DNA of 40,023 nucleotides. Origin: Pseudomonadota bacterium (GTDB taxonomy: Bacteria; Pseudomonadota; Gammaproteobacteria; UBA4575). The stretch spans positions 1 to 40,023 of the forward strand of contig VXPJ01000046.1 in the NCBI GenBank assembly GCA_009839635.1, in the 5' to 3' direction. Shown one piece after another: positions 9,762-40,023 of this stretch. The position numbers and the translations under genes are program-made. Below the pieces are notes generated by a model. That model was given only the letters and a program-made list of their open reading frames with translations, had not been told where the DNA came from and did not search any database. Numbering within the stretch: the stretch's first letter is position 1; every line of letters begins with the position of its first letter.

Positions 9762-9798
9762 AAGGCGCGGGTTCAGGCCTGAACTCTTGGTGCGCCTT
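9762..9798 (-). terminator. hairpin terminator of the TonB-dependent receptor gene
   Basis: AAGGCGC (9762-9768) pairs with GCGCCTT (9792-9798, overlapping the stop codon). An inner palindrome TTCAGGCCTGAA is present, and a T-run follows on the minus strand (GGAAGTTTTGGG). Confidence 0.45.
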
Positions 9799-20485: not shown

Positions 20486-20611
20486 GTATGTTCTCAAACG
20501 GGTTCCGGTCCGGGGGTTCTCTCGGCAATCCCCCGCAAGACTGCGGTCACCGTGGCGGGAAATTATAAATCAGGCGCGCTCGAGGTTGCCATTCACCTCG
20601 CATGAGGTGAG

Positions 20612-23080
20612 CTATCCGGGCGCATCCCGCGAGGCATCCGAATCGCTTCCCCGCATGCCCTCCAGCGCACCAAGATCGAGGGCTGCGCGCGATGCGGTCT
20701 CGCGAATGACCTCGGGCAGTTCATCAAAATCGTCATGTCCACAGGCACGCGCAATGGCCGCCTTGACCTTGGGGTCCAGCGCCTCCTCGTCCAAGGGGTA
20801 GCCCACCACCATCTGCAGGGCGCCGCGGATATTTCTCCACAGGCGCGTGGCCTCGGCCAGGCGCGCAGCCACTTCTTCATCCATCAGCCCACAGCCGCCA
20901 GCCGTTTCATACACGGAGGCGGTGTCGGAAACCAGCAAGGTCAGGGCATCCTCGGCGTGGGTCAGCTGGACCCAGCGCGCCGCATGCTCAAGTTCGTGCA
21001 GGCCGCCGTGCATGTCCTCGATCGAGACAAGACCCGGCCCCGGGACATCGTCGGCCACCGCCGAGAGCTTATCCAGCAATTCAAGGCGCCCCGTCCCGTG
21101 CGTCAGGACTTCGCAGCGTGCCTTGTCCAGGTGCACCTCAAGGCCTGAATCCACCGGCGCAAATATGCAACGCGCCTGCATCAATGTGTGTAGCTCGTAG
21201 GCCGTTCCTGCCGTTCTGTGATGTTCTGTAAATTCCTCCAGGGAGCGCACCGGCGCGGCCTCCCGGGTGCGCGGGATCTCCGCAAACAGCAGGTTCTCGT
21301 GCGAGAACGAACGCAGCGCATTGTAAAAGCGAGCCCCCAGGGACCGGAAGTACTCGGGCGGGGTGCCTTCGTATACGAACGCGATCTCGAGTTCGCAGCC
21401 AGGCACGGCTTCGCCGCTTGCCGCATCGCCGAGCAGGACCGCGGCCAGTGCGCCGCGGGCACGTCGTGCGCGCCTTGATGTAGAGCGATACTCGTCCTCG
21501 ACGGCGGCCAGCAGTACAGAGATCGAGGCCTGTGCAAGGTTCGTGAACACGGGTCCCGCCTCCACCGGCGAGAGGTTGCCGCGCATCACGTGCATGCTCA
21601 CCTGGAAGACCTTGTCGTTGAGCCAGTTGCGCACGGTCTCGACTTTCTCGCGCTCGCCCTGGGCCGGCAGCTCGGCCAGCTGCTCGGTCATCTCTACCAG
21701 CCCGAATTCATGCGTCCAGTACAAACGCGCGAGCCCCTTGCGCGCGATCGTCTCAAAGCCCGTGTCCGGCCCAAAGCCATCCGGCAGGTCCAGGTCGGTG
21801 AATTCGCGGTCCTCGAGGCAGTCCAGCAGTTCCGGGGCGGCGTTGATCCACTCGGTCAGGCGCGGCGAGGCTCCGAGGATTTCCTGGATGCGCTCGATCG
21901 ATTCCGGGCGGGCCACGAAGGCCGCACTGTCGTAGGCGCTCCAGTCACCGATATGCGGATAGAAGTGCGCGCGCCAGCGGTCCACCATCGGGTCCATGAC
22001 CTCGAACCAGCGTTTGGGGGCCACGGCGAGCCCGGCCATCTCGGAATAGTTCCTGGGCAGCTGCGGGGACTCCTCCTCGCCGTGATGCTGCAGCAGCGGG
22101 TAGTAGCGGGTGGCCTCGATGTGATGGTCGGCATGGCGCTGCATGTTGTAGTAGATCCAGTTGGTGAACTTGCTGGCCGCACTCCAGGAATGGCGGGGCG
22201 CGACACGCTCGAAGCGGCCATTGGGCAGGCGGATGCGCTGCAGCCCGTAGTGCTGCACGTAATTGATGATTTTCATGGACAGGATGATGCCCGAGCAAAA
22301 CAGCGCAAACACCAGCACCGCCCAGATCCCGCCCATCCAGTAGACCAGCAGATACCATCCGGCCATCGTCAGGCCATAGCGCCAGAACGGGTTGCTGTAA
22401 TGCCACACCGGCAGGTGCCGCCTCGACAGCCGGCTGCACTCGAAACGCCAGGACTCGCGCAGGCTCGCGGCCAGATCCTTGGGCAGGTACTGCCAGAAGC
22501 TCTGACCCTTGATCGCCGTGCCGTGATCGGCCGGCGTGCACACCAGGGCATGGTGCACGTAGATGTGTTCGGTGGCGTAGATCGGGTACGACACGGACGC
22601 CAGCAGCAGCTCGCCCAGGCGACGCTCCCACAGGGCACGTTGATGGATCAGTTCGTGTCCGGCGATGAACACCGCCTGTCCCACCAGGGCCAGGAGGACG
22701 GCCAGCAGCAGGCTTTCCCACAGCGCCAGGTGGCCCACAACCAGGATCTGCCAGAGCGCATAGACGAACGTCACCAGCCACAGGAGTGCCCAGGCCCAGA
22801 TCGCAAGCTTGTACAGGATCAGCTGGCTCTCCAGGGTGGCCTCCGGGTCCATGTTGCGCGTTTCCGTGCCGAACAGCTTGTCGAACCAGCCGGCCAGCAT
22901 GAAATAGACGGCCGGCCCGAGCAGCCACCAGCCCCCGAAGGTGGCGGCCAGCAGCATCAGGGGGAAGACCATCAGCGAGATGAAATACGGAAGGGCCGCC
23001 CAGATCGTCGGCTCGATGATGCCGCCTTGAGGGCCGGCTCCGGCACCCACACCACCCGGTTCTACGTTACCTATCGCCAT
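20612..23080 (-). CDS. fusion of an AlkB-family membrane di-iron oxygenase with a GlnE-like nucleotidyltransferase-type domain
   Basis: N-terminal ~395 aa carry HELIHQ, EHIYVHH, NYVQHYGL and QRHADHH (AlkB His boxes and the NYxEHYGL signature). The C-terminal ~425 aa resemble the glutamine-synthetase adenylyltransferase repeat (...GCELEIAFVYEG...RSLEEFTEHHR...). Start at ATG 23080 with GGAGG 5 nt upstream; the track start 23095 is TTG. Confidence 0.85.
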   Translation of the reverse strand: MAIGNVEPGGVGAGAGPQGGIIEPTIWAALPYFISLMVFPLMLLAATFGGWWLLGPAVYFMLAGWFDKLFGTETRNMDPEATLESQLILYKLAIWAWALLWLVTFVYALWQILVVGHLALWESLLLAVLLALVGQAVFIAGHELIHQRALWERRLGELLLASVSYPIYATEHIYVHHALVCTPADHGTAIKGQSFWQYLPKDLAASLRESWRFECSRLSRRHLPVWHYSNPFWRYGLTMAGWYLLVYWMGGIWAVLVFALFCSGIILSMKIINYVQHYGLQRIRLPNGRFERVAPRHSWSAASKFTNWIYYNMQRHADHHIEATRYYPLLQHHGEEESPQLPRNYSEMAGLAVAPKRWFEVMDPMVDRWRAHFYPHIGDWSAYDSAAFVARPESIERIQEILGASPRLTEWINAAPELLDCLEDREFTDLDLPDGFGPDTGFETIARKGLARLYWTHEFGLVEMTEQLAELPAQGEREKVETVRNWLNDKVFQVSMHVMRGNLSPVEAGPVFTNLAQASISVLLAAVEDEYRSTSRRARRARGALAAVLLGDAASGEAVPGCELEIAFVYEGTPPEYFRSLGARFYNALRSFSHENLLFAEIPRTREAAPVRSLEEFTEHHRTAGTAYELHTLMQARCIFAPVDSGLEVHLDKARCEVLTHGTGRLELLDKLSAVADDVPGPGLVSIEDMHGGLHELEHAARWVQLTHAEDALTLLVSDTASVYETAGGCGLMDEEVAARLAEATRLWRNIRGALQMVVGYPLDEEALDPKVKAAIARACGHDDFDELPEVIRETASRAALDLGALEGMRGSDSDASRDAPG

Positions 23081-23201
23081 AACAACCTCCAGCAAAGCGC
23101 TGGAACGTATTCATCGTTGAAATTCATTGTCCGCATCGGGATTGGCATGTCAAGGCGCGGGCTGGCGCATTTCACGCTGGTCAGCGCCTGTGATCCCCAT
23201 T

Positions 23202-25589
23202 ATGCTACGGAGCATGGTTGCGGATTCGGGTATGCCAGGACCACACAGCCCGCACGTGGCGGGCACAGGGCCGAATGCGACTGCCCCGCAAGGCCTGCTG
23301 CACAAGGTGAGTGCGGCCGATACCGGTGTCATTGACAGACCCGTGCTGACCCCGCATCTCGAGTACCGGATCCTCGACGCCGAGCGCGTGCTGCTCGTCT
23401 CCGAATCCTTCAACACGCTGCTGCACGGCCCGTTCTACGGCTCGCTGCTGGCGCTGCTGGATGGCACGCACAGCCACGACGAGATCACATCCACCCTGGG
23501 GTCGCAGTGGGTTGGCCAGGATCCTGAGGTCTGGCTCAAATCCCTTGCATCGCGAGGCTACATCGTTTCAGGTGAATACCGCATGGCCCGCGAGCGCGCG
23601 GCCTGGTGGTCCTCGCTGGGGGCCTCCCCTCGGTTTGTCGAGGAGCGCCTGGGAAGCGCAGGCGTGAGCGTGGCCGGGGACGAGGAGTGTGCCCTCACGG
23701 ATGCGCTGGAGTCGATGGGCGTGGCCGCAGGTCCAGGATACGAGGATCTCCGTGTGGTGGTCTGCGAGGACTACCTCGATGCAGTGCATGCGGACACGAA
23801 CCGCGCACAGATGGACTCGGGGCAGCCCTGGATGCTGGCCCGTCCGAAGGGGACCAGTCCGCTCATCGGCCCGGTGTTTTGCCCGGGCACGGGCGGGCCG
23901 TGCTGGAATTGCCTCGCTTACCGCCTGCAAAACCACCAGGAGGTCCATACTTTCGTGCGCAACCGCGAGGGCGAGGCGGGCGCATTTCGTGCCTTCGCCA
24001 TCGAGCCCGGGCTGCTGGAGGCGGTGCACGCACTGATCGCGGCCGAGATCGCCAAGTGGCTGGTGTTCGCCGAGCGTGCCCCGATTCACTCGAACGCGAT
24101 CTCGCTTGAGTTCGGCCCGCTGAAAACGACACACCATCCCGTGCGCCGGCGCCCGCAGTGCCCGGCGTGTGGTGAGGAGGCACACTACCGCGCGGATCGC
24201 CCGGCGCAGGTGGTGCAGCTCAAGCCGAGCCCGAAGGATGTGCAAAACAGCGGCGGGCTTCGCGCGGTCCATCCGGAACAGACCCTGGCGCGCTACTCCC
24301 ACCTGATCAGCCCGGTCAGCGGCGTGGTCAGCTGGCTGGAGCGCACCACCGAGGTCAGCGACCCCTGGCTGCACGTGCACTGGGCCGGCTCCAACCTGGC
24401 GCTTCGCATCAAGAGCCTGAGTTCGCTGCGGCGCAGCCTTCGAAGCAAGAGCGCGGGCAAGGGGAGCACGCCCGAGCAGTCGCAGGCGAGCGCGCTTTGC
24501 GAGGCCATCGAGCGCTATTCGGGCGCCTTCCACGGCGATGAGATCCGCACCCGCAAGCGCTATTCGGAATTCAAAGGCCAGGATGAAGATGGACAGGCCA
24601 TCCATCCGAACGAGGTACAGCTGTTCAGTGACCACCAGCTTGAGCACGCCGATGAAATCAATGCCCGCGCACACCCCTACAACATCATTCCCCCGCACTT
24701 TGATGCGCAAGCCGAGATCGACTGGTCGCCGGTGTACTCGCTCACCCGCGCGCGCCACTACTACCTGCCGACCTCGATCCTCTACGGCATGACCCCCGAG
24801 CAGCGCGGCCCGGGCGATCTGTGGGCGGACTCGAACGGCTGTGCGGCCGGCAACACGCTGGAGGAGGCTATCCTGCAGGGCTTTCTCGAGCTGGTGGAGC
24901 GCGATGCCTTCTCGATCTGGTGGTACAACCGCCTGCGCTGTCCGGGAGTCGATCTTGAGAGTTTCGACGACGCCTATCTGGCCGGTGCAGCGGACTACTA
25001 CAGGACGCTCGAGCGCGACATGTGGCTGCTCGACGTCAGCGCCGATTTCCCCATCCCGGCCTTCGTGGCGCTGTCGCGCAGAACCGACACGCAACCCGAA
25101 GACATCCTCTACGGGGCCGGTGCGCATACCGATGCGCGCATCGCCGCCCTGCGTGCGGTGTGCGAGATGAACCAGTGCCTGACCTGGGTGCCGCGCCCGA
25201 AAACCGGGCACACCGGCTACGGAGTCGATGACCCGATGTGCCTCGCCTGGTGGCAGAACGCGAGGCTTGAGGCACACCCTTACCTCGCCCCGGATCCCGG
25301 CGCGCCTGTACGCTGTGCCGCGGACTATCCGCTGCCCGAAACCGACGACATCAAGGAGGACGTCGAGCACTGCTGTGCACTGGTGGCCGACAAGGGCCTG
25401 GAGATGCTGGTGCTCGAGCAGACCCGGCCCGACATCGGCATGCCGGTGGCCCGCGTCATCGTGCCGGGCATGCGCCACTTCTGGGAGCGCTTTGCCCCGG
25501 GGCGCCTGTACGAGGTGCCGGTGCAGATGGGCCGGCGCACGGCACCGCTGGCCGAGTCCGAACTCAACCCCGTGGCGGTCATCGCCTGA
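23202..25589 (+). CDS. fused E1-like (SagC-type) / YcaO (SagD-type) azoline-forming cyclodehydratase
   Basis: The N-terminal half has an RRE-like segment and CWNC...CPAC zinc motifs. The C-terminal half has YcaO motifs SAGKGSTPEQSQASALCEAIERYSG and GCAAGNTLEEAILQGFLELVERDAFSIWWYN. The start is uncertain: track TTG 23127, candidate ATGs at 23202, 23214 and 23232. Confidence 0.9.
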   Translation: MLRSMVADSGMPGPHSPHVAGTGPNATAPQGLLHKVSAADTGVIDRPVLTPHLEYRILDAERVLLVSESFNTLLHGPFYGSLLALLDGTHSHDEITSTLGSQWVGQDPEVWLKSLASRGYIVSGEYRMARERAAWWSSLGASPRFVEERLGSAGVSVAGDEECALTDALESMGVAAGPGYEDLRVVVCEDYLDAVHADTNRAQMDSGQPWMLARPKGTSPLIGPVFCPGTGGPCWNCLAYRLQNHQEVHTFVRNREGEAGAFRAFAIEPGLLEAVHALIAAEIAKWLVFAERAPIHSNAISLEFGPLKTTHHPVRRRPQCPACGEEAHYRADRPAQVVQLKPSPKDVQNSGGLRAVHPEQTLARYSHLISPVSGVVSWLERTTEVSDPWLHVHWAGSNLALRIKSLSSLRRSLRSKSAGKGSTPEQSQASALCEAIERYSGAFHGDEIRTRKRYSEFKGQDEDGQAIHPNEVQLFSDHQLEHADEINARAHPYNIIPPHFDAQAEIDWSPVYSLTRARHYYLPTSILYGMTPEQRGPGDLWADSNGCAAGNTLEEAILQGFLELVERDAFSIWWYNRLRCPGVDLESFDDAYLAGAADYYRTLERDMWLLDVSADFPIPAFVALSRRTDTQPEDILYGAGAHTDARIAALRAVCEMNQCLTWVPRPKTGHTGYGVDDPMCLAWWQNARLEAHPYLAPDPGAPVRCAADYPLPETDDIKEDVEHCCALVADKGLEMLVLEQTRPDIGMPVARVIVPGMRHFWERFAPGRLYEVPVQMGRRTAPLAESELNPVAVIA

Positions 25590-25600: not shown

Positions 25601-27934
25601 ATGAATACACCCGAACATCCGACGTTTGCGATGCGCTTTGGCGAGTGGGTGATCGCCTGGCGCTGGCCGATCATCGTGGCCTCGCTGGTGCTGGTGGCCC
25701 TCGCTGCAAGCGGCATCGCGCGATTTGAGTTCTCCGCCAACTACCGCATCTTCTTCGATGGTGACAACCCGCAACTGCTGGATCTGGAGGCGCTTGAGAA
25801 AACCTACGGCAAGAACGAGAACCTCGCGTTCCTGATCGTCCCCGACGATGGTGACGCCACCTCGCAAAACGCGCTCTCGGCCACCGTCTGGCTGACCGAG
25901 GCCGCCTGGCGAACGCCCTATTCGCGACGCGTGGACTCGCTCGCCAACTTCCAGTACACCACCGCCGACGGCGATGACCTGTACGTGCGCGACCTCATCG
26001 ACCCGCAAACACTGGACGATGCCGAAGTGCGCGAGCAGATCCGGGCCATCGCGCTGTCCGACCCCAGGATCGCCGGCAGCATCCTCGGGCGAGGCGGTGA
26101 TGTCAGTGTCGTCAACGTCACCCTGGAGCCGCCGGAGGAGGGACTGCTCGAGGCCGTGGCGGAAGTGACCGAATACGCCCGCAAGGTGGCTGCCGAGGGG
26201 GAGCAGCGCTTCCCGGGCATCGACCTTCGCATCGTCGGCACGGTCATGGTCAGCCAGACCTTTGTCGAGGCCTCGGTCGACAGCCAGAAGATTTTCCTGC
26301 CGGCCAGCCTCGTGCTCATGGCCGTGATTCTTGGCCTGCTCGTCCGCAGCTGGACGGGTGTGGCCGCGACCGGCCTGGTGATCGTCTTTTCCATCCTCGT
26401 ATCCCTAGGCGGTGGCGTGTGGCTCGGCATGCCGTTCTCGCCGCCCATCTCGCCGGCCCCGACCATCGTGCTGATGATCGTCGTGGCCAACTGCGTGCAC
26501 CTGCTGGTGGCCCTGCAACAGCGGCTTCGCGCGGGCGACTCCAAGAATGAGGCCATCGTCGAGTCGCTCAGATACAACCTGCACCCGGTGTTTCTGGCAA
26601 GCCTGACCACCGCGCTCGGGTTTTTGAGCATGAATTTCTCCGAGGTGCCGCCCTACCGTCATCTCGGCAACTTCATCGCCATCGGCATCGTCGCCTCCTT
26701 CACGCTCTCGGTGACCTTCCTGCCGGCCCTGATCTCGCTGTTGCCGTTTCGCGCACGCCCTGAACGAAAGCTGGGTGCGGTCACCATCGAGCGCCTCGCC
26801 AACACCGTGCTGCGCTACAGGACTGCGCTGTTCGTCACCTGGCTGGTGATCGTTCCGGTCATGCTCACGGCCATTCCCCGCAACGAGCTCAGCGACGTGC
26901 TGGTGCACTTTTTCGATGAGGGCGTGGAGTTTCGCCAGGACACCGATTTCATGGACGAGCACCTGAGCGGCAACACCCTGCTGGAGTACTCGCTGCACGC
27001 TCCCGAGGAAGGCGGGGCCACCCACCCGGATTTCCTGACCGAGATCGCCCGGTTTGCCGAGTGGTACCGTGAACAGCCCCCGGTGCGCCACGTCGCGGTC
27101 ATCACCGACACCTTCCAGCAACTCAACATGAGCATGCACGGCGATGATCCCGCGGCCTACCGTCTCCCGGAAAGCCAGGAGCTCGCGGCGCAGTACCTGT
27201 TGCTGTACGAGCTGTCGCTGCCGCAGGGCCTGGACATGAACAACCAGATCGACCGCTCGAGGTCGGCGACGCGCGTGTCGGTCTCGGCCGAGACGCTGTC
27301 CTCCCGGGAGGTGCTGGAGCTGAATTCGCACGCCAACGCCTGGCTGGCCGAGAACGCATCGGACATTACCGAGATCAACAGCACTGGGCCGGCGACCCTG
27401 TTCGCCTATATCGGACAGCGCAACATCCGCGCCATGCTGATTGGCACCGTGCTGGTGCTGGTGGCGATTTCCGCCATCCTGCTGATCGCCCTGCAGTCGA
27501 TTCGCCTGGGCCTGATCAGCATCGTGCCCAACCTGGTGCCGGCGGCGCTGGGCTTCGGGGTCTGGGGGTTGACGGTCGGGCAGGTGGGGCTTTCGCTCTC
27601 GGTCGTGGTCGCCATGACCGTCGGCATCGTCGTCGACGACACGGTGCATTTTCTCAGCAAGTACCAACGGGCGCGCCGCGAATATGGCCAGGCGCCCGAG
27701 GAAGCCATTCATTATGCCTTCGATACGGCCGGGCGCGCACTGCTCACCACCACGCTCGTGCTGGTCGCCGGCTTCCTGATTTTCGTGTTCTCGCCGTTCG
27801 TACCCACCGCACAGGTGGGCGTGCTGACCGCGATGATCATCGGCTTTGCGCTGGTGGCCGATCTGACCCTCTTGCCGGCACTGCTGATGCTGGTGGACCG
27901 CACGCCCGGAAAGTCCTCCGCGGCCTCACCCTGA
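25601..27934 (+). CDS. RND-superfamily / MMPL-type exporter (COG1033-like)
   Basis: 777 aa with two blocks of about six TM helices separated by large loops, and an N-terminus typical of 'predicted exporters of the RND superfamily'. It starts 12 nt after the ycaO stop, so an operon is likely. Confidence 0.9.
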   Translation: MNTPEHPTFAMRFGEWVIAWRWPIIVASLVLVALAASGIARFEFSANYRIFFDGDNPQLLDLEALEKTYGKNENLAFLIVPDDGDATSQNALSATVWLTEAAWRTPYSRRVDSLANFQYTTADGDDLYVRDLIDPQTLDDAEVREQIRAIALSDPRIAGSILGRGGDVSVVNVTLEPPEEGLLEAVAEVTEYARKVAAEGEQRFPGIDLRIVGTVMVSQTFVEASVDSQKIFLPASLVLMAVILGLLVRSWTGVAATGLVIVFSILVSLGGGVWLGMPFSPPISPAPTIVLMIVVANCVHLLVALQQRLRAGDSKNEAIVESLRYNLHPVFLASLTTALGFLSMNFSEVPPYRHLGNFIAIGIVASFTLSVTFLPALISLLPFRARPERKLGAVTIERLANTVLRYRTALFVTWLVIVPVMLTAIPRNELSDVLVHFFDEGVEFRQDTDFMDEHLSGNTLLEYSLHAPEEGGATHPDFLTEIARFAEWYREQPPVRHVAVITDTFQQLNMSMHGDDPAAYRLPESQELAAQYLLLYELSLPQGLDMNNQIDRSRSATRVSVSAETLSSREVLELNSHANAWLAENASDITEINSTGPATLFAYIGQRNIRAMLIGTVLVLVAISAILLIALQSIRLGLISIVPNLVPAALGFGVWGLTVGQVGLSLSVVVAMTVGIVVDDTVHFLSKYQRARREYGQAPEEAIHYAFDTAGRALLTTTLVLVAGFLIFVFSPFVPTAQVGVLTAMIIGFALVADLTLLPALLMLVDRTPGKSSAASP

Positions 27935-28044: not shown

Positions 28045-28482
28045 ATGGCAAAAGCGAGAGCCATCGACATCCTGCGGATCTTCCACCGCTTCCCGGACCA
28101 GGCGGCCTGCATCGAGCACCTGGAGAAAATCCGCTGGGGAGACCGGCCCCGTTGCCCGCATTGCGCAAGCGTCCGTGTAGCCAGAAAGGCAGACTCAGGC
28201 CGTGTCGGGCGCTGGAACTGCTACGGTTGCAAGTCCAGCTTCAACGTCCTTTCGGGCACGCTGTTCGAGAAGACCCGCATCCCGTTGCAAAAATGGTTTC
28301 TGGCGGTCGGCCTGATCGTCCATGCCAGGAAAAACCTGTCCAGCTACCGGCTGGCCCGCAGCCTGGTTCTGAACCAGAAAACGGCATGGTTCATGGAACA
28401 GCGGATTCGCGCCGAAATGGCCAACAAGCAGAGCAAAATCCACCTGCAGGGCATCTTCGAGGGGGACGAGACATTCAAGTAG
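28045..28482 (+). mobile_element. IS1595-family transposase remnant (zinc-ribbon/HTH part only)
   Basis: FPDQAACIEHLEKIRWGDRPRCPHCAS...WNCYGCKSSFNVLSGTLFEKTRIPLQKWF matches the IS1595 N-terminal zinc-ribbon domain. The ORF stops at ...EGDETFK, where the DDE (ISXO2-like) domain should begin. No terminal inverted repeats were found. Confidence 0.7.
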
Positions 28483-28648: not shown

Positions 28649-28900
28649 ATGAGAAGCGGCGATGACATGCTTAAGCAGATTGTTGAGAAGTCTGCCCTGG
28701 ACACTGAATTCAGGCAACAGCTTCTCGATGATCCGAAATCTACCATCAGCGCAGAGTTGGGCATTTCCATGCCCGAGTCGATGAACGTTGTGGTCCACGA
28801 GAGCGACATGCAGACGGTGCATCTTGCTCTGCCACCGGATCCGAACATCACCGAAGAACAGCTCGAGGCGATTTCCGCCGGGCTGTGCTGCTGCTGGTAA
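28649..28900 (+). CDS. NHLP-type (nitrile-hydratase-like leader) RiPP precursor, predicted core LCCCW
   Basis: AAGGAGG lies 7 nt upstream of the ATG. The leader ...FRQQLLDDPKSTISAELGISMPESMNVVVHESDMQTVHLALPP...ITEEQLEAISAG resembles NHLP leaders that end in a GG-type site. The last five codons (28883-28897) encode L-C-C-C-W. Confidence 0.85.
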   Translation: MRSGDDMLKQIVEKSALDTEFRQQLLDDPKSTISAELGISMPESMNVVVHESDMQTVHLALPPDPNITEEQLEAISAGLCCCW

Positions 28901-29027: not shown

Positions 29028-30167
29028 TCAGAAACTGACCGCACCGGACAGCACCATGAACACGTAGGCCTTGGCTTTTCGCAGTTCATCCTCGGAGATC
29101 ACCAGCTTGATGTGGTGGATGCCACGCAGCAGCACAAAGCGCCCGGACTTCGCAAACAGCGTCGTCGGCTTGCTCACCCACGTGGCCAGCTCGGCCAGCT
29201 TGCCCCGGTCCACCAGCGCCTCCTGGCCCAGCGCCTCAAGGAACGGGTCCCAGTCGGTCAGGCCATCGAGCCAGTAGCGGGAATCTTTCGTATAGCGCTG
29301 CTTGACGATCAGCGTCAGGCCCAGCGTCGGACCCAGGCCCTGCTCCTGGACGTCGATATTGATGCCGGTGCGAACGATGTCCGTGCGCTTCGCGAATCGC
29401 TTGAGCACCGCATCGACGGCTGCAATGTCCCCGGGCCAGCCGGTGTTCTCAAGATACTCGCCAAGCTGTGCGCTCGAGCGAAAGCCCATGACCGCCAGGC
29501 GTATGGCTTGCGAGCGCGAGGGAAACACACCGAACGAGTCCATGCGCGTATCCCCGGGCTGCATCCGGTAGCTGCGCTCGATGTGCCCGCGATGGGCCTC
29601 GTCCATCGACCAGCCAAGACAGGACACCAGCGCATCCGCGACCAGGGCAACCTCGCCGTGCTGCTCGCAGCCCCCGAGTATCGGGCGCTCGCCAGGGCGC
29701 AAAAACATGCCCGGGAAGGGCGGCTTGCCCGGCCCGGCCGAACCGATGTCGTATTCGAGCATGAGCTTTCGCCCGACCACCTCGCGAAGCGGCGAGGGTT
29801 CGGCTTCCATCTGGCGGAACAGGCGGGCGATCGCGCACGCCAGTGCATCGCCGGGATCCGCCTTCGCACGGGCAAGGAATGGTTCGGCCGATCGCGTGCC
29901 GGCAGCCAGCGAGGCGCCAAAATCCGCCAGCGGCGCTGTCTCATGCAGCGGTAGTTCGAAACCAAAGGGAAGGGCCGCCATGGTGATCGGAAGTTTGGCG
30001 GCGCAATCGAGTACTCGGGTCCATTGGGAGTCGCCGATCAGCACCGGCGAGATTCGCTCGCGAAAGTGCTCGAGCAAGTCGGCCATGCTGCCGCCTTCAT
30101 CGGCCAGGCGCTCCTGGGTCAGCAGGATGGCCTCGTCGATGCTGATGTCCTCTGGGGCAGATGCCAT
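29028..30167 (-). CDS. uncharacterised protein (379 aa), candidate PT-barrel/ABBA-like fold
   Basis: Last gene of the minus-strand operon, 11 nt after the upstream stop, with GAGGAAG as Shine-Dalgarno. No cofactor motif recognised. Five beta-hairpin-like segments occur at roughly 56-78-aa spacing. Confidence 0.7.
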   Translation of the reverse strand: MASAPEDISIDEAILLTQERLADEGGSMADLLEHFRERISPVLIGDSQWTRVLDCAAKLPITMAALPFGFELPLHETAPLADFGASLAAGTRSAEPFLARAKADPGDALACAIARLFRQMEAEPSPLREVVGRKLMLEYDIGSAGPGKPPFPGMFLRPGERPILGGCEQHGEVALVADALVSCLGWSMDEAHRGHIERSYRMQPGDTRMDSFGVFPSRSQAIRLAVMGFRSSAQLGEYLENTGWPGDIAAVDAVLKRFAKRTDIVRTGINIDVQEQGLGPTLGLTLIVKQRYTKDSRYWLDGLTDWDPFLEALGQEALVDRGKLAELATWVSKPTTLFAKSGRFVLLRGIHHIKLVISEDELRKAKAYVFMVLSGAVSF

Positions 30168-30178: not shown

Positions 30179-31474
30179 TCAGCTGCTCAGCGCTCGTGCG
30201 AGGCGCCCCAGCGCCTCGATGCAGAAGGCCGTGGTCACGGGCTCCGAGCCGTGCCCGAACTGCCCGACCACCCCCCACTTAAGCGTCTGGTCGCCGAAAG
30301 CGAGCAGTTCCGGCCAGCTTCCGTCCTCGTGCTGTGCACCCAGCAGGCGGGCCAGCTCGACTTTCATGTCGATACGGCCCAGGCACTGCACGTTGTCGAG
30401 CGCCGAGACTGCCTGGGCGCTTTGCAGCAGGTTGCCAAACCCGCCCTCGGGGTCGCGAAGACCGAGAATACGGTCTGCCAGGATCGGGCCCAGGGACTCG
30501 AGCGCGGGGCGAGCGCGCACCATTGTGCGCGTGATGGCGTAGTAGATCGCTATCGTATCGGGATACCATTTCGAGGTGTCGTGCACGCGGTCCTCGCGTA
30601 CCAGTTCCTCCAGCCAGCGCTGCGCGGGACGGGTCTGCGGGTGATCGCCGAGGTAGGCGATGACGTTCGCATTCACCACCGGGTCGGCCTCGATGCGAAA
30701 TTTTGACACGACATCGGGCTCGTCCTCGCCCAGCACCCAGGTCAGGAAACGGCCCTGCGCATCGCGGTTCGACAGGATCTTTGCCACGTTTCGCCCGAGC
30801 GCGATCCACGGATGCGAACCAAGGATCAGCGAGCACAGGGTCGTGCTGTCCAGATCCTGGGGCAGGTGGCGGTAGTAGCGCCACATGCCGGGATATTCCA
30901 TGGTGTCCATCAGGTACGCCCGGCTCGCCTCGCACAGGGTTCTTGCACGAGCATCCCCGCAGCCTTGCAGGGCCAGTACGCAAAATGCCGTCACGAACGC
31001 GGGGCGCTCGAAATGCCGGGGCACCTCGGGATCGGCAATGTTGAAGCGAATGCAGTGCCAGGCACCGTCATCGGTGATGCTGGATTGCAGGAATTCGAGA
31101 CCACGACCGATACTGTTGCGGGCGGCCGACACCAGGTCGTCGGCGCTCGCCCCGGAGTCCACCGCCCGGGCCGGTGCGGGAGTGCGCATCGGCGGGGCCG
31201 GATCGTGCAGCGTCTTGCGAAGAAACTCCAAGGAGGCCACGCCGGTTTTCGCAGCTTCGCGTTCGACCGGCGTGCGCTTACTCACCGGCGGCAGCACAAG
31301 GTGGGCTTCGGTCTCGCTCGCCTGGTGCACGAACACCTGCTGGTCGGCGGAGATCTTCACGCCGAGGGCCTCCTCGATGGCCTGCCTGGGATCATCGATG
31401 AGGCGTTGTCGAAAGCCTTCGTCCCGGCCCGCACGCAAAATGAGCTGGCCTGCGCCATCGATGGGAGGGTTCAT
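30179..31474 (-). CDS. NHLP-leader-like domain fused to a prenyltransferase/squalene-oxidase-repeat (alpha/alpha-toroid) domain
   Basis: Residues ~8-65 align without gaps to the precursor leader (20 of 60 identical by hand: FRQ.L.DDP...I...LG...V.VH...HL.LPP). The remaining ~350 aa carry repeats DDGAWH, EYPGMWRYY, DAQGRF, DPEGGFG, HEDGSWP and a DLDSTT motif resembling DxDDTA. Confidence 0.8.
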   Translation of the reverse strand: MNPPIDGAGQLILRAGRDEGFRQRLIDDPRQAIEEALGVKISADQQVFVHQASETEAHLVLPPVSKRTPVEREAAKTGVASLEFLRKTLHDPAPPMRTPAPARAVDSGASADDLVSAARNSIGRGLEFLQSSITDDGAWHCIRFNIADPEVPRHFERPAFVTAFCVLALQGCGDARARTLCEASRAYLMDTMEYPGMWRYYRHLPQDLDSTTLCSLILGSHPWIALGRNVAKILSNRDAQGRFLTWVLGEDEPDVVSKFRIEADPVVNANVIAYLGDHPQTRPAQRWLEELVREDRVHDTSKWYPDTIAIYYAITRTMVRARPALESLGPILADRILGLRDPEGGFGNLLQSAQAVSALDNVQCLGRIDMKVELARLLGAQHEDGSWPELLAFGDQTLKWGVVGQFGHGSEPVTTAFCIEALGRLARALSS

Positions 31475-31528
31475 GGGAGTGCTTTCACAAGCCTGCTGTG
31501 GAGTCGAAGTGGGCCGTCCGGGTTCGGA

Positions 31529-34471
31529 TCAGGCGATTTGCCTTTTGACCAGTTCCCTGAACACCCCGTCCTCTTCCATGAGTTCCTCGAAGCTGCCGTG
31601 CTGCGCCACCTTGCCGCCGGACAGCACGTAGATACGGTCCGCCTGCTCAAGCGTGGACAGGCGGTGGGCGATGACCAGCCGGGTGGAGGTCAGGTCGGTC
31701 AGGTTGTCCATGACCCGGGCCTGGTTTTCGTTATCCAGCCAGTTGGTGGCCTCGTCGAACAGCATGATCCGCGGCTTGCCGATCACCGAGCGGGCGATGG
31801 TGACGCGCTGGCTCTCGCCGCCAGACAGCACCGAGCCGCTGGCGCCGACCATGGTCATCATACCCATGGGCATGGCCTTGATCTCTTTTTCGACTTCGGC
31901 GGTTCGCACCGACTCCCAGACCTCATCGGTGGTGATTCCGTCGTGATGGCTGACCAGGTTGTCCCAGATATCCAGGGGGTGAAGCCCCACGGCTTGCGGC
32001 ACCGCGCCGATCTTGCGGCGCAACTGGCGCAGGTTCAAGTGGCGCACATCACGCCCGTCGTAGTACACCGCACCGGCAGTAGGCCGGTCGATGCCGAGCG
32101 CGAGGCGAAACAGGGTGCTCTTGCCGGTGCCGGACTCGCCAGCGATGGCGATGAACTCGCCCGCGCGTGCGTGGATCGTGACATCGTCGAGAATCAGCGG
32201 GCCGTCCGGGTCGTAGCGAAACGAGATGCGGTCGAACAGGAGGTCTCCGCCCAGGTATTCCACCGGCTCGCCTTCGGTCTCGGTTTCGGGATCTGCAGCC
32301 AGCAGCGGGCGCATCTGCTTGAACGCCGGCAACAGGGCCGCAACGGTCCCCAGAGATTCGCCAAGGCGTGCGATCGCGCTCTGGAAGGCGATGAAGACCA
32401 GGTAGACGACCAGAAAATCACCGACCGGCATGATGCGCTCGCCGACGGTCACTGCGGCCAGCAGCAAGAAGGCTCCCGCGAGAAACGGCAATGCCGCGGA
32501 AAACGCCCGCGAATGCCCCTCCAGCACGCTCAAATCGAGTTCCGCACGTTTTTGCTCGCGGTAGTCCTGGGCCCACATGGCAAACGCGGAGCCTTCGGCA
32601 TTTTCCACGCGCAGCTTGGCAAAGCCGCCAACGATCTGGAACAGGCGCCCGGCGACACGCCGTGACGCACGGATCATGCGCCCGTACGGAGCAATCTGCA
32701 GGACACCGAGCATCCCTGTAATGAGCAGCGACCCCAGACTGAAGGCCAGGGCGAGACCGCCGAGGGCGGCATCGTAGAAGAAGATGACGGCAAACACCGG
32801 GACCAGGAAGATGACTGACAGGAAGCTGTCGGCGACCACTCCCTGCAGGCCGTCTCGAAGATTCTGGAAGGTCATGCCCGACATCGCCAGGTCGCCTGAC
32901 GGATGGCGGTGCAGGATGGCCGGCGGCAATCGCATGAGGCGGTCCCAGAAGGCCGCTTCTGCACGCGAGGCCGAGCGCCCCTCAAGACGCATCATCGCCG
33001 TACTTTGCGCGAGGTGCAGCAGTGCCCCGAGAAGGCCGAACCCGGCCAACACCCAGGCCACGGCGTAGATCGCACCGGCAGTGCCGCCTGCGGCGATTTC
33101 ATGGGCGACAAAGCCAAGCGCCAGGGCCGGCAACAATTGGATCAGCCCGTAGGGAAGTCCTGCGAGCACCAGCCGGGCAATGTCCGGTCCCGATCCCTGC
33201 AGGGCCAGGCCCAGCAGGTCCGCCGGTTTCACCTCGCCTGCAGGCAAGGGGCGGTAGAACATCCACGCGTCCTCACGCAGTGCGGTAGCGTGTTCCTGGC
33301 TGACGCGAACCGTGCGCTTGCTGACCGGGTCGATTTCACGGTAGCCGCCGAACACCCCCGGCAGCAGAGCCACGGGCTGGCCGTCCTCAGCACGAAACCC
33401 CAGCATCGCGTGGCTGTCGGTACGCCACCACCGGTCCTCGTCCTTGAGCCGCACGCGCCTTGCACGCACTCCGGAGGCATCCAGCACGTCGACCAAGCCG
33501 AGCGAAGCCTGCGAAGGCCCGGAACGTGCGGGAATCTTGAAATCGATACCCTCGTGGCGGCCGATGACCTGCAGGGCATCGACCAAGGTGGTGTCTTCAA
33601 GGCCGGCATAGCGGCCCACCGGCTGGTCGTAGAGGTTGAACAGGCGCGCGCGGGCCGCCTTCTCGGCCGTGCGCCGGCTCGTTGTGCGGGCACGTTCGAG
33701 GTTCACATCGTCGACCACGGCCAGTCGTCGGTTCAGGCGCTCCAGGGTGAAGGCGACCTCATGAAAATACGAAAGTGCGCCCTGCAGGCGGCCCTGCTCG
33801 GCCAGGGTTTGCGTGCTCACGCATTCCAGCGTGGTCTCCTCCAGCGTGGTCAGCCAGCTGGTGCGGGTCAGCGGCAGCACCGCATCCCCTGCGCCGCTGG
33901 CCTCGGCCAACTCCATCGGATCGACGATGTCCATGAACAGCAGCGCACTGCCCGGGTGCGGGGACGCCCACACCACCTTGCGCTGCACCGACAGCGTGCT
34001 GTGTGCCGGGACCTGTATCGCACCGGCCTCGGCCAGGGCCGTCGGGCGCGGTGCGGGCGTGGCGAATCGCGACAGCGTGTCGGTCATCTCGCTCAGCCAG
34101 GCATCGGTCTGTTCGGCAAGCTCAGCCGGGTGCACCTTGGACAGCAGGGAGACCGGCAGGCGTTTCAGCAAGGTGCCGGGCAGGCCCTTGGCTACCAGGC
34201 TCAGCGTGGTTCCATCCTGCGCGTCAGGTTCGCGCGCAGGAACCCCTGGCAGGAACCAGCCCGCCTCACGGCGCAGCAGATGCTGTGGAGACGACTGCTC
34301 CACACCGTCCTTGAGCTCGACTAAAAACAGGTTGACGGTGCCCCGGTCAATGAGCCAGATGCTGTCCGCATCGTCGAGCTTCACCGGCAGATTGCCGGCA
34401 CAGGGCACGTCAGTCCCCAGGCGAGCCGCGAGTTCGGCGATCGAGGAGTAGGCGGGCCGGGTGTCCTGCAT
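31529..34471 (-). CDS. NHLM-type ABC transporter with N-terminal cyclic-nucleotide-binding-like domain
   Basis: 980 aa with a cNMP-like N-terminus, a TM domain, and Walker A GESGTGKST, signature LSGGESQR and Walker B IMLFDEAT. The start overlaps the upstream stop (TAATG at 34471). It resembles TIGR03797 (from memory). Confidence 0.9.
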   Translation of the reverse strand: MQDTRPAYSSIAELAARLGTDVPCAGNLPVKLDDADSIWLIDRGTVNLFLVELKDGVEQSSPQHLLRREAGWFLPGVPAREPDAQDGTTLSLVAKGLPGTLLKRLPVSLLSKVHPAELAEQTDAWLSEMTDTLSRFATPAPRPTALAEAGAIQVPAHSTLSVQRKVVWASPHPGSALLFMDIVDPMELAEASGAGDAVLPLTRTSWLTTLEETTLECVSTQTLAEQGRLQGALSYFHEVAFTLERLNRRLAVVDDVNLERARTTSRRTAEKAARARLFNLYDQPVGRYAGLEDTTLVDALQVIGRHEGIDFKIPARSGPSQASLGLVDVLDASGVRARRVRLKDEDRWWRTDSHAMLGFRAEDGQPVALLPGVFGGYREIDPVSKRTVRVSQEHATALREDAWMFYRPLPAGEVKPADLLGLALQGSGPDIARLVLAGLPYGLIQLLPALALGFVAHEIAAGGTAGAIYAVAWVLAGFGLLGALLHLAQSTAMMRLEGRSASRAEAAFWDRLMRLPPAILHRHPSGDLAMSGMTFQNLRDGLQGVVADSFLSVIFLVPVFAVIFFYDAALGGLALAFSLGSLLITGMLGVLQIAPYGRMIRASRRVAGRLFQIVGGFAKLRVENAEGSAFAMWAQDYREQKRAELDLSVLEGHSRAFSAALPFLAGAFLLLAAVTVGERIMPVGDFLVVYLVFIAFQSAIARLGESLGTVAALLPAFKQMRPLLAADPETETEGEPVEYLGGDLLFDRISFRYDPDGPLILDDVTIHARAGEFIAIAGESGTGKSTLFRLALGIDRPTAGAVYYDGRDVRHLNLRQLRRKIGAVPQAVGLHPLDIWDNLVSHHDGITTDEVWESVRTAEVEKEIKAMPMGMMTMVGASGSVLSGGESQRVTIARSVIGKPRIMLFDEATNWLDNENQARVMDNLTDLTSTRLVIAHRLSTLEQADRIYVLSGGKVAQHGSFEELMEEDGVFRELVKRQIA

Positions 34472-36682: not shown

Positions 36683-37234
36683 TCAGGAGGGCCTCATCCG
36701 AAGGCGTGCGATCGGCGACTGACGGCCCACTTCAATGGTGACCTCGCATTCCTTGCGTGCAGGCACAGCGGCCCCGGGGGGCGCATCGAGCCGGATGCGC
36801 AGGCGGTGCACCGACAGCGGCGCACGGCCCTCGAACATCGCCAGGAACTCGGTCAGGGGCAGCACGGAAATGCCCGCCACTTCCCCTTCCAGGGTGTGGA
36901 GATGCCCGTCGGCGCCACTGAACTCGATCTTCGCAGGCTGGCCGGCCTCGATCTGAGCGGCGGCATCGCGCTTGATCCACACCATCGCCTGCAGGCTGTG
37001 CTCGCCCGCCAGCGTGCTTTCACCGGGTCCGGCCAAGACCCCATCGAGCGTCAGGCTGCGGGCCACGCTGCCAAACACCAGCCAGACCAAAAGCACCACC
37101 AATACCCCGGCAATGGCGGCCACCAGCGCACGCTCATTGGGGGTGGAGATGGTGAGCAGCCGGTCCAGCTGTTCGCGTTCTTCCTTGGCCTCGGCGACCA
37201 TGTTGTGAAATGACTCGAATGGATTGTTGAACAC
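36683..37234 (-). CDS. short HlyD-like / NHLM secretion adaptor protein (183 aa)
   Basis: GTG start, one TM helix (ALVAAIAGVLVVLLVWLVF), then barrel-sandwich-like segments (...AMVWIKRDAAAQIEAGQPAKIEF...GEVAGIS...). Its stop lies 1 nt before the ABC start. Confidence 0.65.
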   Translation of the reverse strand: MFNNPFESFHNMVAEAKEEREQLDRLLTISTPNERALVAAIAGVLVVLLVWLVFGSVARSLTLDGVLAGPGESTLAGEHSLQAMVWIKRDAAAQIEAGQPAKIEFSGADGHLHTLEGEVAGISVLPLTEFLAMFEGRAPLSVHRLRIRLDAPPGAAVPARKECEVTIEVGRQSPIARLRMRPS

Positions 37235-37422
37235 GACTTAGAGCAGCCTCCTTACCTGGATCAAGCAACGTCCCAGGAGACATCCCATCCGGGATGGCAT
37301 TGAAACTTTTAGCGATTATAAGCAATCTCGCCCAAGAAAGATCAAATTCTCACCCCAGCGCAGGCCATGGCCTGGAGCTTCGCACACCGGTCACTTCACC
37401 TGTTCCGGGCACTCAAGGTACA

Positions 37423-38319
37423 ATGTCACACGTCCATCACGCGCCTGTGCAGATGTTTCCTGATCACGAAACCGCCCGAAACCGGCGGGTCCACGACGAC
37501 CCGACTAAGGCTTTTCCATGCGCGCGCAGGGGGTGGCTCGGGACCCTGGCCCTGATCCTCGCGGCACTGGGACCGGCGCAGACACCGGTACTGGCGGAGA
37601 CGGCGGAAGAAAAAGGGCTCAGGATTGCGCTGGAGGCCGAGGCCCGCAACGACGGCTTCGGGGATTTCACCGCGGGCATGACGATGGTGCTGCGCGATCG
37701 GTACGGGCGCGAGAGTATCCGCCAGATGCGCTTCAAGGTGCTGGAGGTGGCAGGCGACGGGGACAAGAGCCTGTTTGTGTTCGATCAGCCGCGAGACGTG
37801 CAGGGCACCGCCCTGCTGACCCACGCCCACATCAACACCCAGGACGACCAGTGGCTGTACCTGCCGGCCCTGAAGCGGGTCAAGCGCATCAACGCCTCGA
37901 AGCGTTCCGGGTCCTTCATGGGCAGCGAGTTCTCCTACGAGGACATGAGCACGCCGGAAGTGGAGGAATACACCTACAAGTACCTACGCGACGAGCCCTG
38001 CGGCGAGCTCAGCTGTACCGTGACCGAGCAGGTGCCGCTGGACAAGAACTCCGGATACAGCCGCAAGATCGTCTGGCAGGACACCGGTGAGCTTCGCGTC
38101 TGGAAGATGGAACTGTACGACCGCAAGGACTCGCACCTGAAGACACTCACGTTCGCCAACTACGAGCAATACCTGGACCAGTTCTGGCGGGCCGGGGAAC
38201 AGACCATGGTGAACCACCTGACCGAGGCCAGCACGGTGCTGCACTGGACCGACTTCAGGTTTCGCACCAACCTCGACGACAGCGAATTCAACAAACTGGC
38301 ACTGCGACGCGTGCGCTGA
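37423..38319 (+). CDS. LolA-like 'outer membrane lipoprotein-sorting' family periplasmic protein
   Basis: Signal peptide ...LALILAALGPAQTPVLA. Signature DDQWLYLPALKRVKRINASKRSGSFMGSEFSYEDM (LolA_like family, from memory). Start taken at ATG 37423; the track start 37294 is probably too far upstream. Confidence 0.85.
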   Translation: MSHVHHAPVQMFPDHETARNRRVHDDPTKAFPCARRGWLGTLALILAALGPAQTPVLAETAEEKGLRIALEAEARNDGFGDFTAGMTMVLRDRYGRESIRQMRFKVLEVAGDGDKSLFVFDQPRDVQGTALLTHAHINTQDDQWLYLPALKRVKRINASKRSGSFMGSEFSYEDMSTPEVEEYTYKYLRDEPCGELSCTVTEQVPLDKNSGYSRKIVWQDTGELRVWKMELYDRKDSHLKTLTFANYEQYLDQFWRAGEQTMVNHLTEASTVLHWTDFRFRTNLDDSEFNKLALRRVR

Positions 38320-39867: not shown

Positions 39868-40023
39868 ATGATCCAGCCAGGTAGCCAATCCTTGCGCAAG
39901 ATCGCGGTGGTCGGGCGAGGCACTGCGGGTTCTCTGGCGGCTGCAAGCATCACCCGCCTGCATCCGGGGGACGACTACGAACTGCACCACATCTACGACT
40001 CGCGCATCCCGGTGATCGGCGTG
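39868..40023 (+). CDS. FAD-dependent tryptophan-halogenase-family protein (N-terminal fragment, runs off the window)
   Basis: GGAGG lies 9 nt upstream. KIAVVGRGTAGSLAAASI...SRIPVIGV matches the halogenase N-terminus (GxGxxG ... IPxIGVGE). Confidence 0.65.
   Translation, partial: MIQPGSQSLRKIAVVGRGTAGSLAAASITRLHPGDDYELHHIYDSRIPVIGV

Follow-up and report, generated by a model that had tools for sequence, protein, structure and literature searches.

An NHLP-leader-like domain naturally fused to a predicted class II terpene cyclase in the srp proteusin cluster of sponge symbionts

The stretch of DNA analysed here (hereafter the window; 40,023 nucleotides of contig VXPJ01000046.1, assembly GCA_009839635.1, gammaproteobacterial lineage UBA4575) contains a gene for a 431-residue protein in which a domain resembling the leader of NHLP-type precursor peptides is joined, via a conserved linker, to a toroid of the class II terpene cyclase type. 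This fusion gene belongs to the core of the srp (sponge-derived RiPP proteusin; RiPP, a peptide that is made by the ribosome and modified after translation) cluster of sponge symbionts. Most likely, the fusion protein would work as a cyclase together with the product of a neighbouring gene, a 379-residue protein with the ABBA fold of aromatic prenyltransferases, and its N-terminal domain would most likely be a protein-protein docking module, a 'leader mimic', holding the cyclase on a partner that recognizes the NHLP nucleus. A literature search pairing NHLP or proteusin with terpene cyclase, squalene-hopene cyclase or fusion gave no description of this protein. Both a natural leader nucleus fused to a tailoring enzyme and the implication that the srp product is a terpenoid-peptide hybrid appear to be undescribed so far. 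The proposed chemistry itself has a precedent from 2024 and, by this analogy, would be no new kind of chemistry.

The N-terminal domain was compared with leader sequences and profiles. Against the precursor peptide SrpE of the same window, BLASTP gave one gapless segment with 25 of 74 positions identical (34%, E 7e-14), slightly better than the 20 of 60 counted by hand for residues ~8-65 in an earlier note that had proposed the homology from the letters of this DNA. Residues 9-63 match TIGR03793, the NHLP leader family, at E 4.7e-10 with 39.2 bits, a score under the curated cut-off of 50.9 bits for formal membership. A match to PF02979 (NHase_alpha) was obtained at E 8e-5, and a profile of 36 fusion-family members matches nitrile hydratase alpha chains at E 1.9e-9 and the nuclear magnetic resonance structure of the NHLP MprE7 (8tb1) at E 2.5e-5. 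Due to these TIGR03793, PF02979, BLASTP and family-profile matches, the leader similarity is well beyond chance, and the proposal of the earlier note stands under profile comparison. In the AlphaFold2 (AF2) model, the domain contains helices at residues 7-17, 19-27 and 29-37, with a predicted local distance difference test score (pLDDT) of ~80, and beta-strands at 48-53 and 56-60. It is thus predicted to have the trihelical bundle followed by beta-strands that forms the NHLP nucleus in MprE7. For the whole protein the model has a pLDDT of 70 and a predicted template modelling score (pTM) of 0.72. The pLDDT is mostly low up to about residue 100, with two low-confidence helices at 69-88 and no predicted structure from there up to ~110, and an all-helical domain with confident helices spans residues ~111-431.

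Conservation was computed by alignment column for 73 fusion orthologues from at least ten phyla. The mean column identity is 0.67 in the nucleus (residues 9-65), 0.73 in the linker (66-98) and 0.77 in the toroid (117-431), compared with 0.37 in the spacer (99-116), which indicates that the N-terminal domain and the linker are under selection. The linker has the consensus ERExAxTGxxSLEFLRKTxxDPAPPxR with E71, R72, A75, G78, S81, F84, L85, T88, D91, P92, A93, P94 and R97 invariant, and it sits where a real precursor has the L(X)4L region, the cleavage site and the core. Alignment to NHLP precursors shows that the nucleus and also the Glu-Ala...Gly frame of the cleavage region have been kept. At the position of L(X)4L, which reads ITEEQL in SrpE, the fusion proteins carry [F/L/Y/R]-x4-R, the second Leu being replaced by the invariant R72 and, in the clade of the window's own protein, the first by Arg as well. 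A double-glycine-type site with a core behind it was not found in the fusion protein, in agreement with the earlier note: the aligned site reads A-A-(K/R)-T-G followed by (A/V), with TG for GG or AG, and the hydrophobic positions of such a site are occupied by Ala (-4), Arg (-7) and Arg or Phe (-12). Moreover, no Cys-rich tail was found in the protein.

The Agarwal and McShan groups have shown by experiment what these elements do in NHLP leaders. Binding of SrpI depends mainly on L(X)4L, and binding to the RiPP recognition element (RRE) of a YcaO protein requires L(X)4L plus helix alpha-1 of the nucleus, in a mode akin to recognition by the C39 peptidase (PMC10858898, PMC12455567, PMC12537861). 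The same groups have published the folded leader nucleus as binding surface for the YcaO enzyme MprC and the LanM enzyme DprM. For the ABBA prenyltransferase MppC, insertion of Trp and Phe side chains into a Nif11 leader nucleus has been published. Due to the fact that L(X)4L and the GG site are absent, the fusion protein should not compete with SrpE for the brominase, nor be cleaved or exported, and with L(X)4L lost it can use at most the nucleus part of the YcaO interface. The earlier note had considered exporter cargo and substrate-like docking on the YcaO RRE as roles of the domain. Both proposals are weakened by the altered motifs, which argue against export as well as against docking by the RRE beta-strand. 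Judged from its residues, the N-terminal domain appears to be neither substrate nor export signal and is probably a docking or leader-mimicry module.

The consensus of the N-terminal domain family is nearer to the NHLPs of another cluster type, locus L002 (51% identity, E 2e-22), than to its cognate SrpE (35%, E 3e-16), and this locus contains a stand-alone cyclase gene with an NHLP gene 271 bp upstream on its strand. Since domain and gene order agree in this way, the fusion of a precursor gene with a cyclase gene is a plausible origin, and the domain probably arose by such a joining to the cyclase gene downstream.

The toroid was analysed by fold, profile and motif. In Foldseek searches against the Protein Data Bank (PDB), class II terpene cyclases were on top (E 3e-9 to 1e-5, target-normalised TM-score up to 0.65), with drimenol synthase (9mhs/9m7d, E 3e-9) followed by the single-domain structures 8pak/8paj and then by MstE, SsDMS, squalene-hopene cyclase (SHC) and oxidosqualene cyclase. 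Among 1.8 billion representatives 1126 toroid relatives were found, many of which stand alone, have 305-340 aa and align to residues ~115-428 with 30-47% identity, without a leader-like part. With a profile of this wider family, drimenol synthase is matched in its TC-beta domain (9mhs_B) at E 8e-28 over positions 30-309 of 315; further matches are SHC (E 4e-25), AstC (E 2e-20) and 8paj (E 8e-17). For the single fusion protein, the match to PF13243 is weak and under the cut-off (E 3.8e-4). The stand-alone relatives carry LPPDLDDTA, which contains the canonical DxDDTA of SHC, and the fused subfamily carries DLDSTT; in the wider-family profile, ppDlDdta is aligned to DDLDTT of drimenol synthase. 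D209, the middle Asp, is invariant in fused and stand-alone relatives, together with W198, N270, Y304, Q381, G385 and W387. The strictly conserved middle Asp of the 'occasionally variable DXDD motif' has been described as the general acid, and the drimenol synthase AsDMS has DXDT (PMC12232559). On the basis of this motif, D209 in DLDSTT is likely the general acid. From predicted fold, homology and catalytic motif, residues 117-431 are assigned to a single-beta-domain class II terpene cyclase. The alpha/alpha toroid and the position of DLDSTT had both been recognized correctly in the earlier note. A LanC-like lanthionine cyclase was rejected as candidate, with no LanC among the 50 best Foldseek matches, no conserved zinc ligands in the toroid and no Ser or Thr in LCCCW.

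The fusion is widespread. For the fusion protein 1073 homologues were found; those among the matches listed are ~430 aa long and cover the full query at 63-93% identity, one listed homologue has 393 aa (91% query coverage), and no listed full-length homologue is devoid of the N-terminal domain. A profile scan of genomes, which was seeded with the alignment of the fused family and retrieved fused orthologues only, found the protein encoded in 298 GTDB species genomes, namely sponge-type metagenome-assembled genomes (MAGs). In 73 loci from the set of 80 fetched loci, the window, L001 and L004, the match starts at protein residue 1. A sequencing artefact as source of the fusion, which the earlier note had named among its refuting outcomes, is therefore ruled out. 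The existing database names of the homologues are 'hypothetical protein' or, wrongly, 'nitrile hydratase subunit alpha'.

By its gene content the window is the known srp cluster, since it has an LCCCW precursor, a YcaO protein and a Trp halogenase as described for srp. As summarized in a bioRxiv paper, the defining features of srp clusters (Nguyen et al. 2021) are an LCCCW core whose terminal Trp is brominated, together with the formation of azolines. The earlier note had recognized neither this cluster nor the RiPP prenyltransferase-cyclase enzymes, which are known since 2024. Co-occurrence of genes was counted across the 56 related loci whose 10-kb flanks are complete. Together with the fusion gene, the gene of the 379-residue protein is present in all 56 of these, the YcaO gene in 55, srpE in 53, the desaturase/GlnE gene in 51, ABC2 in 48, the halogenase gene in 46, and ABC1 and the HlyD-like gene in 42 each. 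The usual order is HlyD-ABC1-ABC2-fusion-desaturase/GlnE-YcaO-379aa-SrpE, and 65 of 68 orthologous loci encode a precursor with the core LCCCW. Since the literature has SrpC as the YcaO protein and SrpE as the precursor, srpA is the probable name of the fusion gene and srpD that of the 379-codon gene, both names being taken from gene order only; the YcaO gene is probably srpC and the desaturase/GlnE-like gene probably srpB. In those parts of the srp literature that were available, only SrpE, SrpC and SrpI are characterised, and the secondary literature, with the primary paper of Nguyen et al. 2021 not covered, names neither a prenyltransferase nor a terpene cyclase nor an enzyme domain resembling a leader. 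A bioRxiv paper of 2026 about halogenated peptides from sponges does not treat srp.

The proposed partner of the cyclase was identified by its fold, as the 379-residue protein has no sequence match in Pfam, NCBIfam or the PDB and its 913 homologues are all unnamed or 'hypothetical'. Its AF2 model (pLDDT 78, pTM 0.79) shows five beta-hairpins alternating with helix pairs, i.e. an ABBA barrel. Among the Foldseek matches listed, the best 50 belong without exception to the ABBA aromatic prenyltransferases, mostly to the tryptophan prenyltransferases, with DMATS1 first (E 5e-6), PriB, IptA and the 5- and 6-DMATS enzymes, and also NphB, EpzP and PagF. According to these models, the prenyltransferase of the pathway is more likely this protein than the toroid.

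Both families also occur together outside the srp cluster. In sponge-type MAGs, three further NHLP clusters, otherwise different in gene content, contain stand-alone cyclase genes and prenyltransferase-like genes as paralogues of the srp pair: L002 with two of each and six NHLP genes, L003 with two prenyltransferase-like genes, one cyclase gene, two P450s and the precursor core YY, and L088 with one of each. Additionally, Rosetta-stone fusions of exactly these two families exist, P0248 (670 aa) and P0215 (667 aa), single chains with an N-terminal prenyltransferase-like domain and a C-terminal toroid. P0215 adjoins three NHLP-type precursors with GG followed by xDW or xSW (cores IDWLNN..., ADWFSD..., ISWIAG...), and P0248 adjoins a 120-aa open reading frame (ORF) ending in ...SGW. 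The cores in L002, L003 and L088 are GESQGHTPW, EGWAQ..., DTWD..., GWES..., SGMWEHHG, SFGKDYG, YY and GGWCSPV. Across the clusters with prenyltransferase-like and cyclase genes the cores are short, and their sole commonality is an aromatic residue, which is Trp in nearly every case; five cluster types have cores with Trp. The co-occurrence, the joint presence in other NHLP clusters and the single-chain fusions tie the 379-residue protein to the cyclase, and the coupling of genes known for NctPC, an ABBA-fold neighbour with an MstE-like cyclase and a precursor with a Trp core, is found in srp.

The surroundings of P0215 also hold a PqqD-like gene and a sulfotransferase gene, and the L002, L003 and L088 clusters hold P450s, FAD_binding_4 oxidases, a JmjC protein and CoA-transferases. 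In Hymenobacter sp. UYP22 (L089 6737-9104), a distant stand-alone relative of the toroid is encoded beside, and divergently from, a UbiA-family membrane prenyltransferase, which looks like a non-RiPP meroterpenoid pair.

In the proposed mechanism, the prenyltransferase would attach an isoprenyl chain to an aromatic core residue, here the C-terminal Trp of LCCCW, and the cyclase would then protonate the terminal double bond and cyclise the chain, the step order being that of NctPC and ChrPC, published RiPP enzymes with prenyltransferase and cyclase fused. The N-terminal domain would dock on the prenyltransferase or on the YcaO protein and would thereby replace the covalent link between prenyltransferase and cyclase that is found in other clusters. 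Taken as a whole, this model of class II cyclase, ABBA prenyltransferase acting on the core Trp and docking by the N-terminal domain is held tentatively, at somewhat less than an even chance. That the srp peptides are terpenoid-peptide hybrids, i.e. brominated, azoline-bearing pentapeptides with a cyclised isoprenoid on Trp, whose cyclase is recruited by leader mimicry, is considered possible and rather doubtful.

Several points weigh against the model. The motif is DLDS and not DLDD; drimenol synthase tolerates DLDT, and the Ser variant present here is uncharacterised. The NHLP domain is not generally needed, as four other cluster types have stand-alone cyclases that lack it. Docking on the YcaO protein is doubtful because, with L(X)4L lost, one of the two elements that MprE7 needs for the YcaO RRE of MprC is missing, and the prenyltransferase would be no more than a candidate docking site. 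Both AF2 models, of the fusion protein and of the 379-residue protein, were built from shallow alignments of close homologues, the confidence is low for the active-site loops of the toroid, and the TM-scores are ~0.5. No isoprenyl diphosphate synthase was found in the srp cluster, and the prenyl donor would therefore have to come from primary metabolism. Finally, prenylation of the srp product is unreported in the srp literature, the primary paper of 2021 not covered.

Among the alternatives, the one that survives best leaves the catalytic domain a class II cyclase and places the role of the N-terminal domain in substrate recruitment or activation in cis. The domain would pair with the leader nucleus of SrpE as a heterodimer or fill the cyclase's own leader site, and the enzyme, permanently 'on', would act on leaderless or exporter-bound peptide. 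Fusion of a leader in cis has been used experimentally to make lanthipeptide synthetases constitutively active. The strong conservation of domain and linker, the tether-like character of the long, partly disordered linker and the loss of L(X)4L and the cleavage site, as suits a domain that must escape processing, are consistent with this explanation. It is nevertheless judged unlikely: other NHLP clusters have cyclases of this family that stand alone, devoid of such a domain, so that no leader-dependent switch is obvious in this cyclase family, there is no evidence for dimerisation of NHLP nuclei, and the domain is nearer to the NHLPs of other cluster types than to SrpE, the proposed partner.

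Less probable still is an evolutionary relic, in which the leader nucleus was kept after gene fusion as an appendage for folding or solubility, without a partner. The NHLP-then-cyclase gene order in L002, the 51% identity to the NHLPs of that locus and the disappearance of the motifs of leader function would all fit a relic. The conservation of nucleus and linker across at least ten phyla, against that of the spacer, argues otherwise, as does the presence of the N-terminal domain in every full-length homologue among the matches listed, where decay or loss in some lineages would be expected.

Two alternatives concern the toroid. That it has no catalytic role and serves a hydrophobic product as binding, carrier or immunity protein is very unlikely. 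Toroids that are binding proteins (transcobalamin, TED domains) do appear low in the Foldseek list, and the MMPL, LolA-like and DUF1302 genes nearby could belong to lipid trafficking; but the general-acid Asp is invariant, the aromatic-rich set W198, Y304 and W387 is conserved across fused, stand-alone and PC-fused relatives, and the close profile match is to active cyclases. A role of the toroid as protein-prenyltransferase-like enzyme, S-prenylating Cys residues in a CaaX-like CCCW tail, is highly improbable. Both classes share the alpha/alpha toroid fold, PF00432 is matched weakly by 9 of the 36 family members, and the C-terminal CCCW resembles a CaaX box. However, the best protein prenyltransferase beta subunit in the Foldseek list stands at rank 48 with E 7.8e-3, compared with 3e-9 for cyclases. 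No Cys or His is invariant or nearly so across the wider toroid family, so that there is no candidate zinc site, and no gene for a prenyltransferase alpha subunit was found among the cluster genes scanned. The DxD motif with its invariant middle Asp is a cyclase signature, the Cys residues are substrates of the YcaO protein according to the srp literature, and the cluster has a separate ABBA prenyltransferase-like gene. On the fold rank, the missing zinc ligands and the missing alpha subunit, a beta subunit of a protein prenyltransferase (PF00432; farnesyltransferase or geranylgeranyltransferase) was rejected, and of the two enzyme classes that the earlier note had named together, the terpene cyclase is retained and the prenyltransferase abandoned. 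The least probable explanation, that the protein is cargo of the C39 ABC exporter or a decoy or regulator competing with SrpE for the YcaO protein or the halogenase, draws on its leader-like N-terminus and on the fusion gene lying directly downstream of both ABC genes in most loci, and fails on the TG site with its unsuitable residues at -4, -7 and -12, on the destruction of the element that binds SrpI, RREs and C39 domains, and on the implausibility of a folded 46-kDa toroid as passenger of a peptidase-containing ABC transporter.

The features of the window and of the related loci are listed in Table 1. The ABC exporter genes lie just upstream of the fusion gene and share its orientation. Over 19.9 kb, the window and the sponge-type gammaproteobacterial MAG L005 have 94.6% identity, and in tblastn the halogenase start matches the L004 halogenase with 73% identity across 52 aa.

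Table 1. Positions of the features discussed, numbered in the window unless a locus is named.
Feature	Position	Strand	Basis
Fusion gene (NHLP-like domain, linker, class II terpene-cyclase-like toroid)	30179..31474	(-)	431-aa ORF, ATG start, uninterrupted
NHLP structured nucleus, fusion residues 9-65	31280..31450	(-)	profile, BLASTP and AF2 model
Conserved linker, fusion residues 66-98	31181..31279	(-)	invariant residues, column identity
Variable spacer, fusion residues 99-116	31127..31180	(-)	low column identity
Toroid, fusion residues 117-431, predicted single-domain class II terpene cyclase (beta-domain)	30182..31126	(-)	Foldseek, profile vs PDB
DLDSTT (D207-T212), variant class II DxDD motif with likely general acid	30839..30856	(-)	translation
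379-aa ABBA-fold aromatic prenyltransferase-like gene, proposed partner (probably srpD)	29028..30167	(-)	AF2 and Foldseek, co-occurrence
Precursor SrpE, 83 aa, NHLP leader ...ITEEQLEAISAG then core LCCCW	28649..28900	(+)	TIGR03793, 69.1 bits
YcaO cyclodehydratase with E1-like/RRE N-terminal part (probably srpC)	23127..25589	(+)	PF02624 E 8e-96; TIGR03604, TIGR03882
FA_desaturase and GlnE-like nucleotidyltransferase fusion protein, 827 aa (probably srpB)	20612..23095	(-)	Pfam
NHLP-type exporter, ABC2	31529-34471	(-)	TIGR03797
NHLP-type exporter, C39-peptidase ABC1	34471-36681	(-)	TIGR03796
Trp halogenase start (srpI-like), first 52 codons, cut by window end	39868..40023	(+)	tblastn
MMPL transporter, HpnN-like MMPL/RND	25601-27934	(+)	
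IS1595 remnant	28045-28482	(+)	
Short HlyD-like gene	36683-37234	(-)	
LolA-like (DUF1329-related) and DUF1302 genes	37294-39548	(+)	
Single-chain P0248/P0215 regions	L085 4403-4765 and 4790-6802; L086 1656-4801		
Other NHLP clusters with stand-alone cyclase and prenyltransferase-like genes, sponge-type MAGs	L002 4219-12563; L003 4851-10933; L088 4857-8990		

Several observations were made on the exporter. The peptidase-less ABC2 has 980 aa, of which TIGR03797 covers residues 294-979 only; the N-terminal ~290 residues (first ~290 codons of its gene) have no family match, are conserved in orthologues and are a candidate binding site for a folded NHLP nucleus. The HlyD-like adaptor has 183 aa and matches only the first ~50 of the 421 positions of TIGR03794; since it is conserved in 56 of 80 loci, the short form is no local truncation. 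Over 5.1 kb (31526-36600), the ABC exporter genes share ~77% nucleotide identity with L023, L048, L057, L068 and L080, a comparison spanning MAGs of Gammaproteobacteria, Alphaproteobacteria and Acidobacteriota, and this identity across phyla indicates a recent horizontal spread of the cluster among sponge symbionts.

The MMPL, LolA-like and DUF1302 genes accompany the cluster in 14-23 of the 56 loci, mostly in Proteobacteria, and suggest that a hydrophobic product is trafficked to the outer membrane. The MMPL gene is separated from srpE by the remnant of an IS1595-family element (zinc ribbon and first ~70 aa of the DDE domain), which is found at the same place with ~90% identity in the MAGs L005 and L006 and is therefore old rather than a recent insertion. 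A stand-alone FA_desaturase is encoded in L088 (11649-12719), and BLASTP finds no similarity between it and the desaturase/GlnE protein of the window. Just upstream of the cluster, a subtilase (S8) gene (17990-20497 (-)) and a gene for an NAD-dependent epimerase (16199-17329 (+)) were tried as cluster members and rejected because they were seen in none of 80 related loci. Farther away, the GC content is 0.48-0.49 at 8001-10000 compared with 0.62-0.68 in most of the window from 10 kb on; this low-GC stretch lies between an unannotated 388-aa ORF (6963-8129) and a gene for a TonB-dependent receptor (9797-12424).

Among the biosynthetic loci of sponge microbiomes, the srp clusters rank with the most widespread and the most highly expressed, and only their brominase and cyclodehydratase have been studied. 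The pairing of the C-terminal domain with a prenyltransferase-like gene suggests that the srp product is a peptide bearing a cyclised terpene. If the reading of the fusion protein as a cyclase docked by leader mimicry is true, the srp peptides, which in every high-microbial-abundance sponge are made by bacteria of dozens of lineages, with high transcription, would be terpenoid-peptide hybrids, and leader mimicry would be an undescribed way to assemble RiPP enzyme complexes. A lipophilic product would also be a reason why the srp product has escaped detection; in Proteobacteria, the cluster stands beside HpnN-like MMPL, LolA-like and DUF1302 lipid-trafficking genes. Moreover, the leader-like domain is a natural experiment on the purpose of the folded NHLP nucleus, which is under study for YcaO, LanM, halogenase and prenyltransferase partners, and it could serve as a portable docking tag in the engineering of RiPP pathways.

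Among known systems, the srp clusters of Nguyen et al. (JACS 2021) are, as far as their published description was available, the same cluster, with LCCCW precursor, YcaO, Trp-6-brominase and distribution over many sponge-symbiont phyla. The enzyme pair resembles NctPC, which according to the enzyme descriptions in a 2026 review (PMC13290415) is an ABBA prenyltransferase fused to an MstE-like cyclase that geranylgeranylates Trp before its C domain cyclises the chain (Hubrich et al., Chem 2024). ChrPC carries out the same prenylation and cyclisation with a P domain like that of isoprenyl diphosphate synthases (PMC13290415). By these descriptions, both combine an MstE-like single-domain class II cyclase with a prenyltransferase, of ABBA type in NctPC, and act on Trp of a ribosomal precursor; srp has the same two folds beside a core ending in Trp, and single-chain versions of exactly its two families exist in P0248 and P0215. 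In contrast to NctPC and ChrPC, the srp activities are placed on separate proteins, the cyclase carries an NHLP-like N-terminal domain, and a YcaO protein and a brominase also act on the precursor, an NHLP proteusin.

The toroid itself is most similar to AsDMS (HAD-TC-beta) and MstE, its best structural and profile matches, with which it shares the fold, the DxD(T/D)T motif and the aligned middle Asp. The prenyl chain that MstE cyclises is one that an aromatic ring already carries. The partner domain in AsDMS is a HAD phosphatase, whereas in the srp protein it is leader-like, and the presumed srp substrate, unlike those of AsDMS and MstE, is a peptide-bound prenyl group.

The N-terminal domain resembles the NHLP leaders of TIGR03793 (SrpE, MprE7 with structure 8tb1, DprE2) in its nucleus of helical bundle and beta-hairpin, derived from nitrile hydratase alpha, and has kept the conserved positions D..FR..L..P and H.V.P. 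It differs from them in scoring under the family cut-off, in having no L(X)4L, GG-type site or core, and in running into a 350-aa enzyme, and for these reasons the fusion protein is no precursor. Engineered leader-enzyme fusions such as leader-LctM and the leader-fused microviridin ligases, as well as the borosins (OphMA), in which a core is fused to its own methyltransferase in one polypeptide, likewise join substrate-derived and enzyme-derived parts covalently. However, the engineered fusions are laboratory constructs, whereas the srp-cluster fusion is a natural leader nucleus without a core; and where borosins attach the core and not the leader, the srp fusion attaches the leader nucleus, its true substrate being encoded by a separate gene with a leader of its own.

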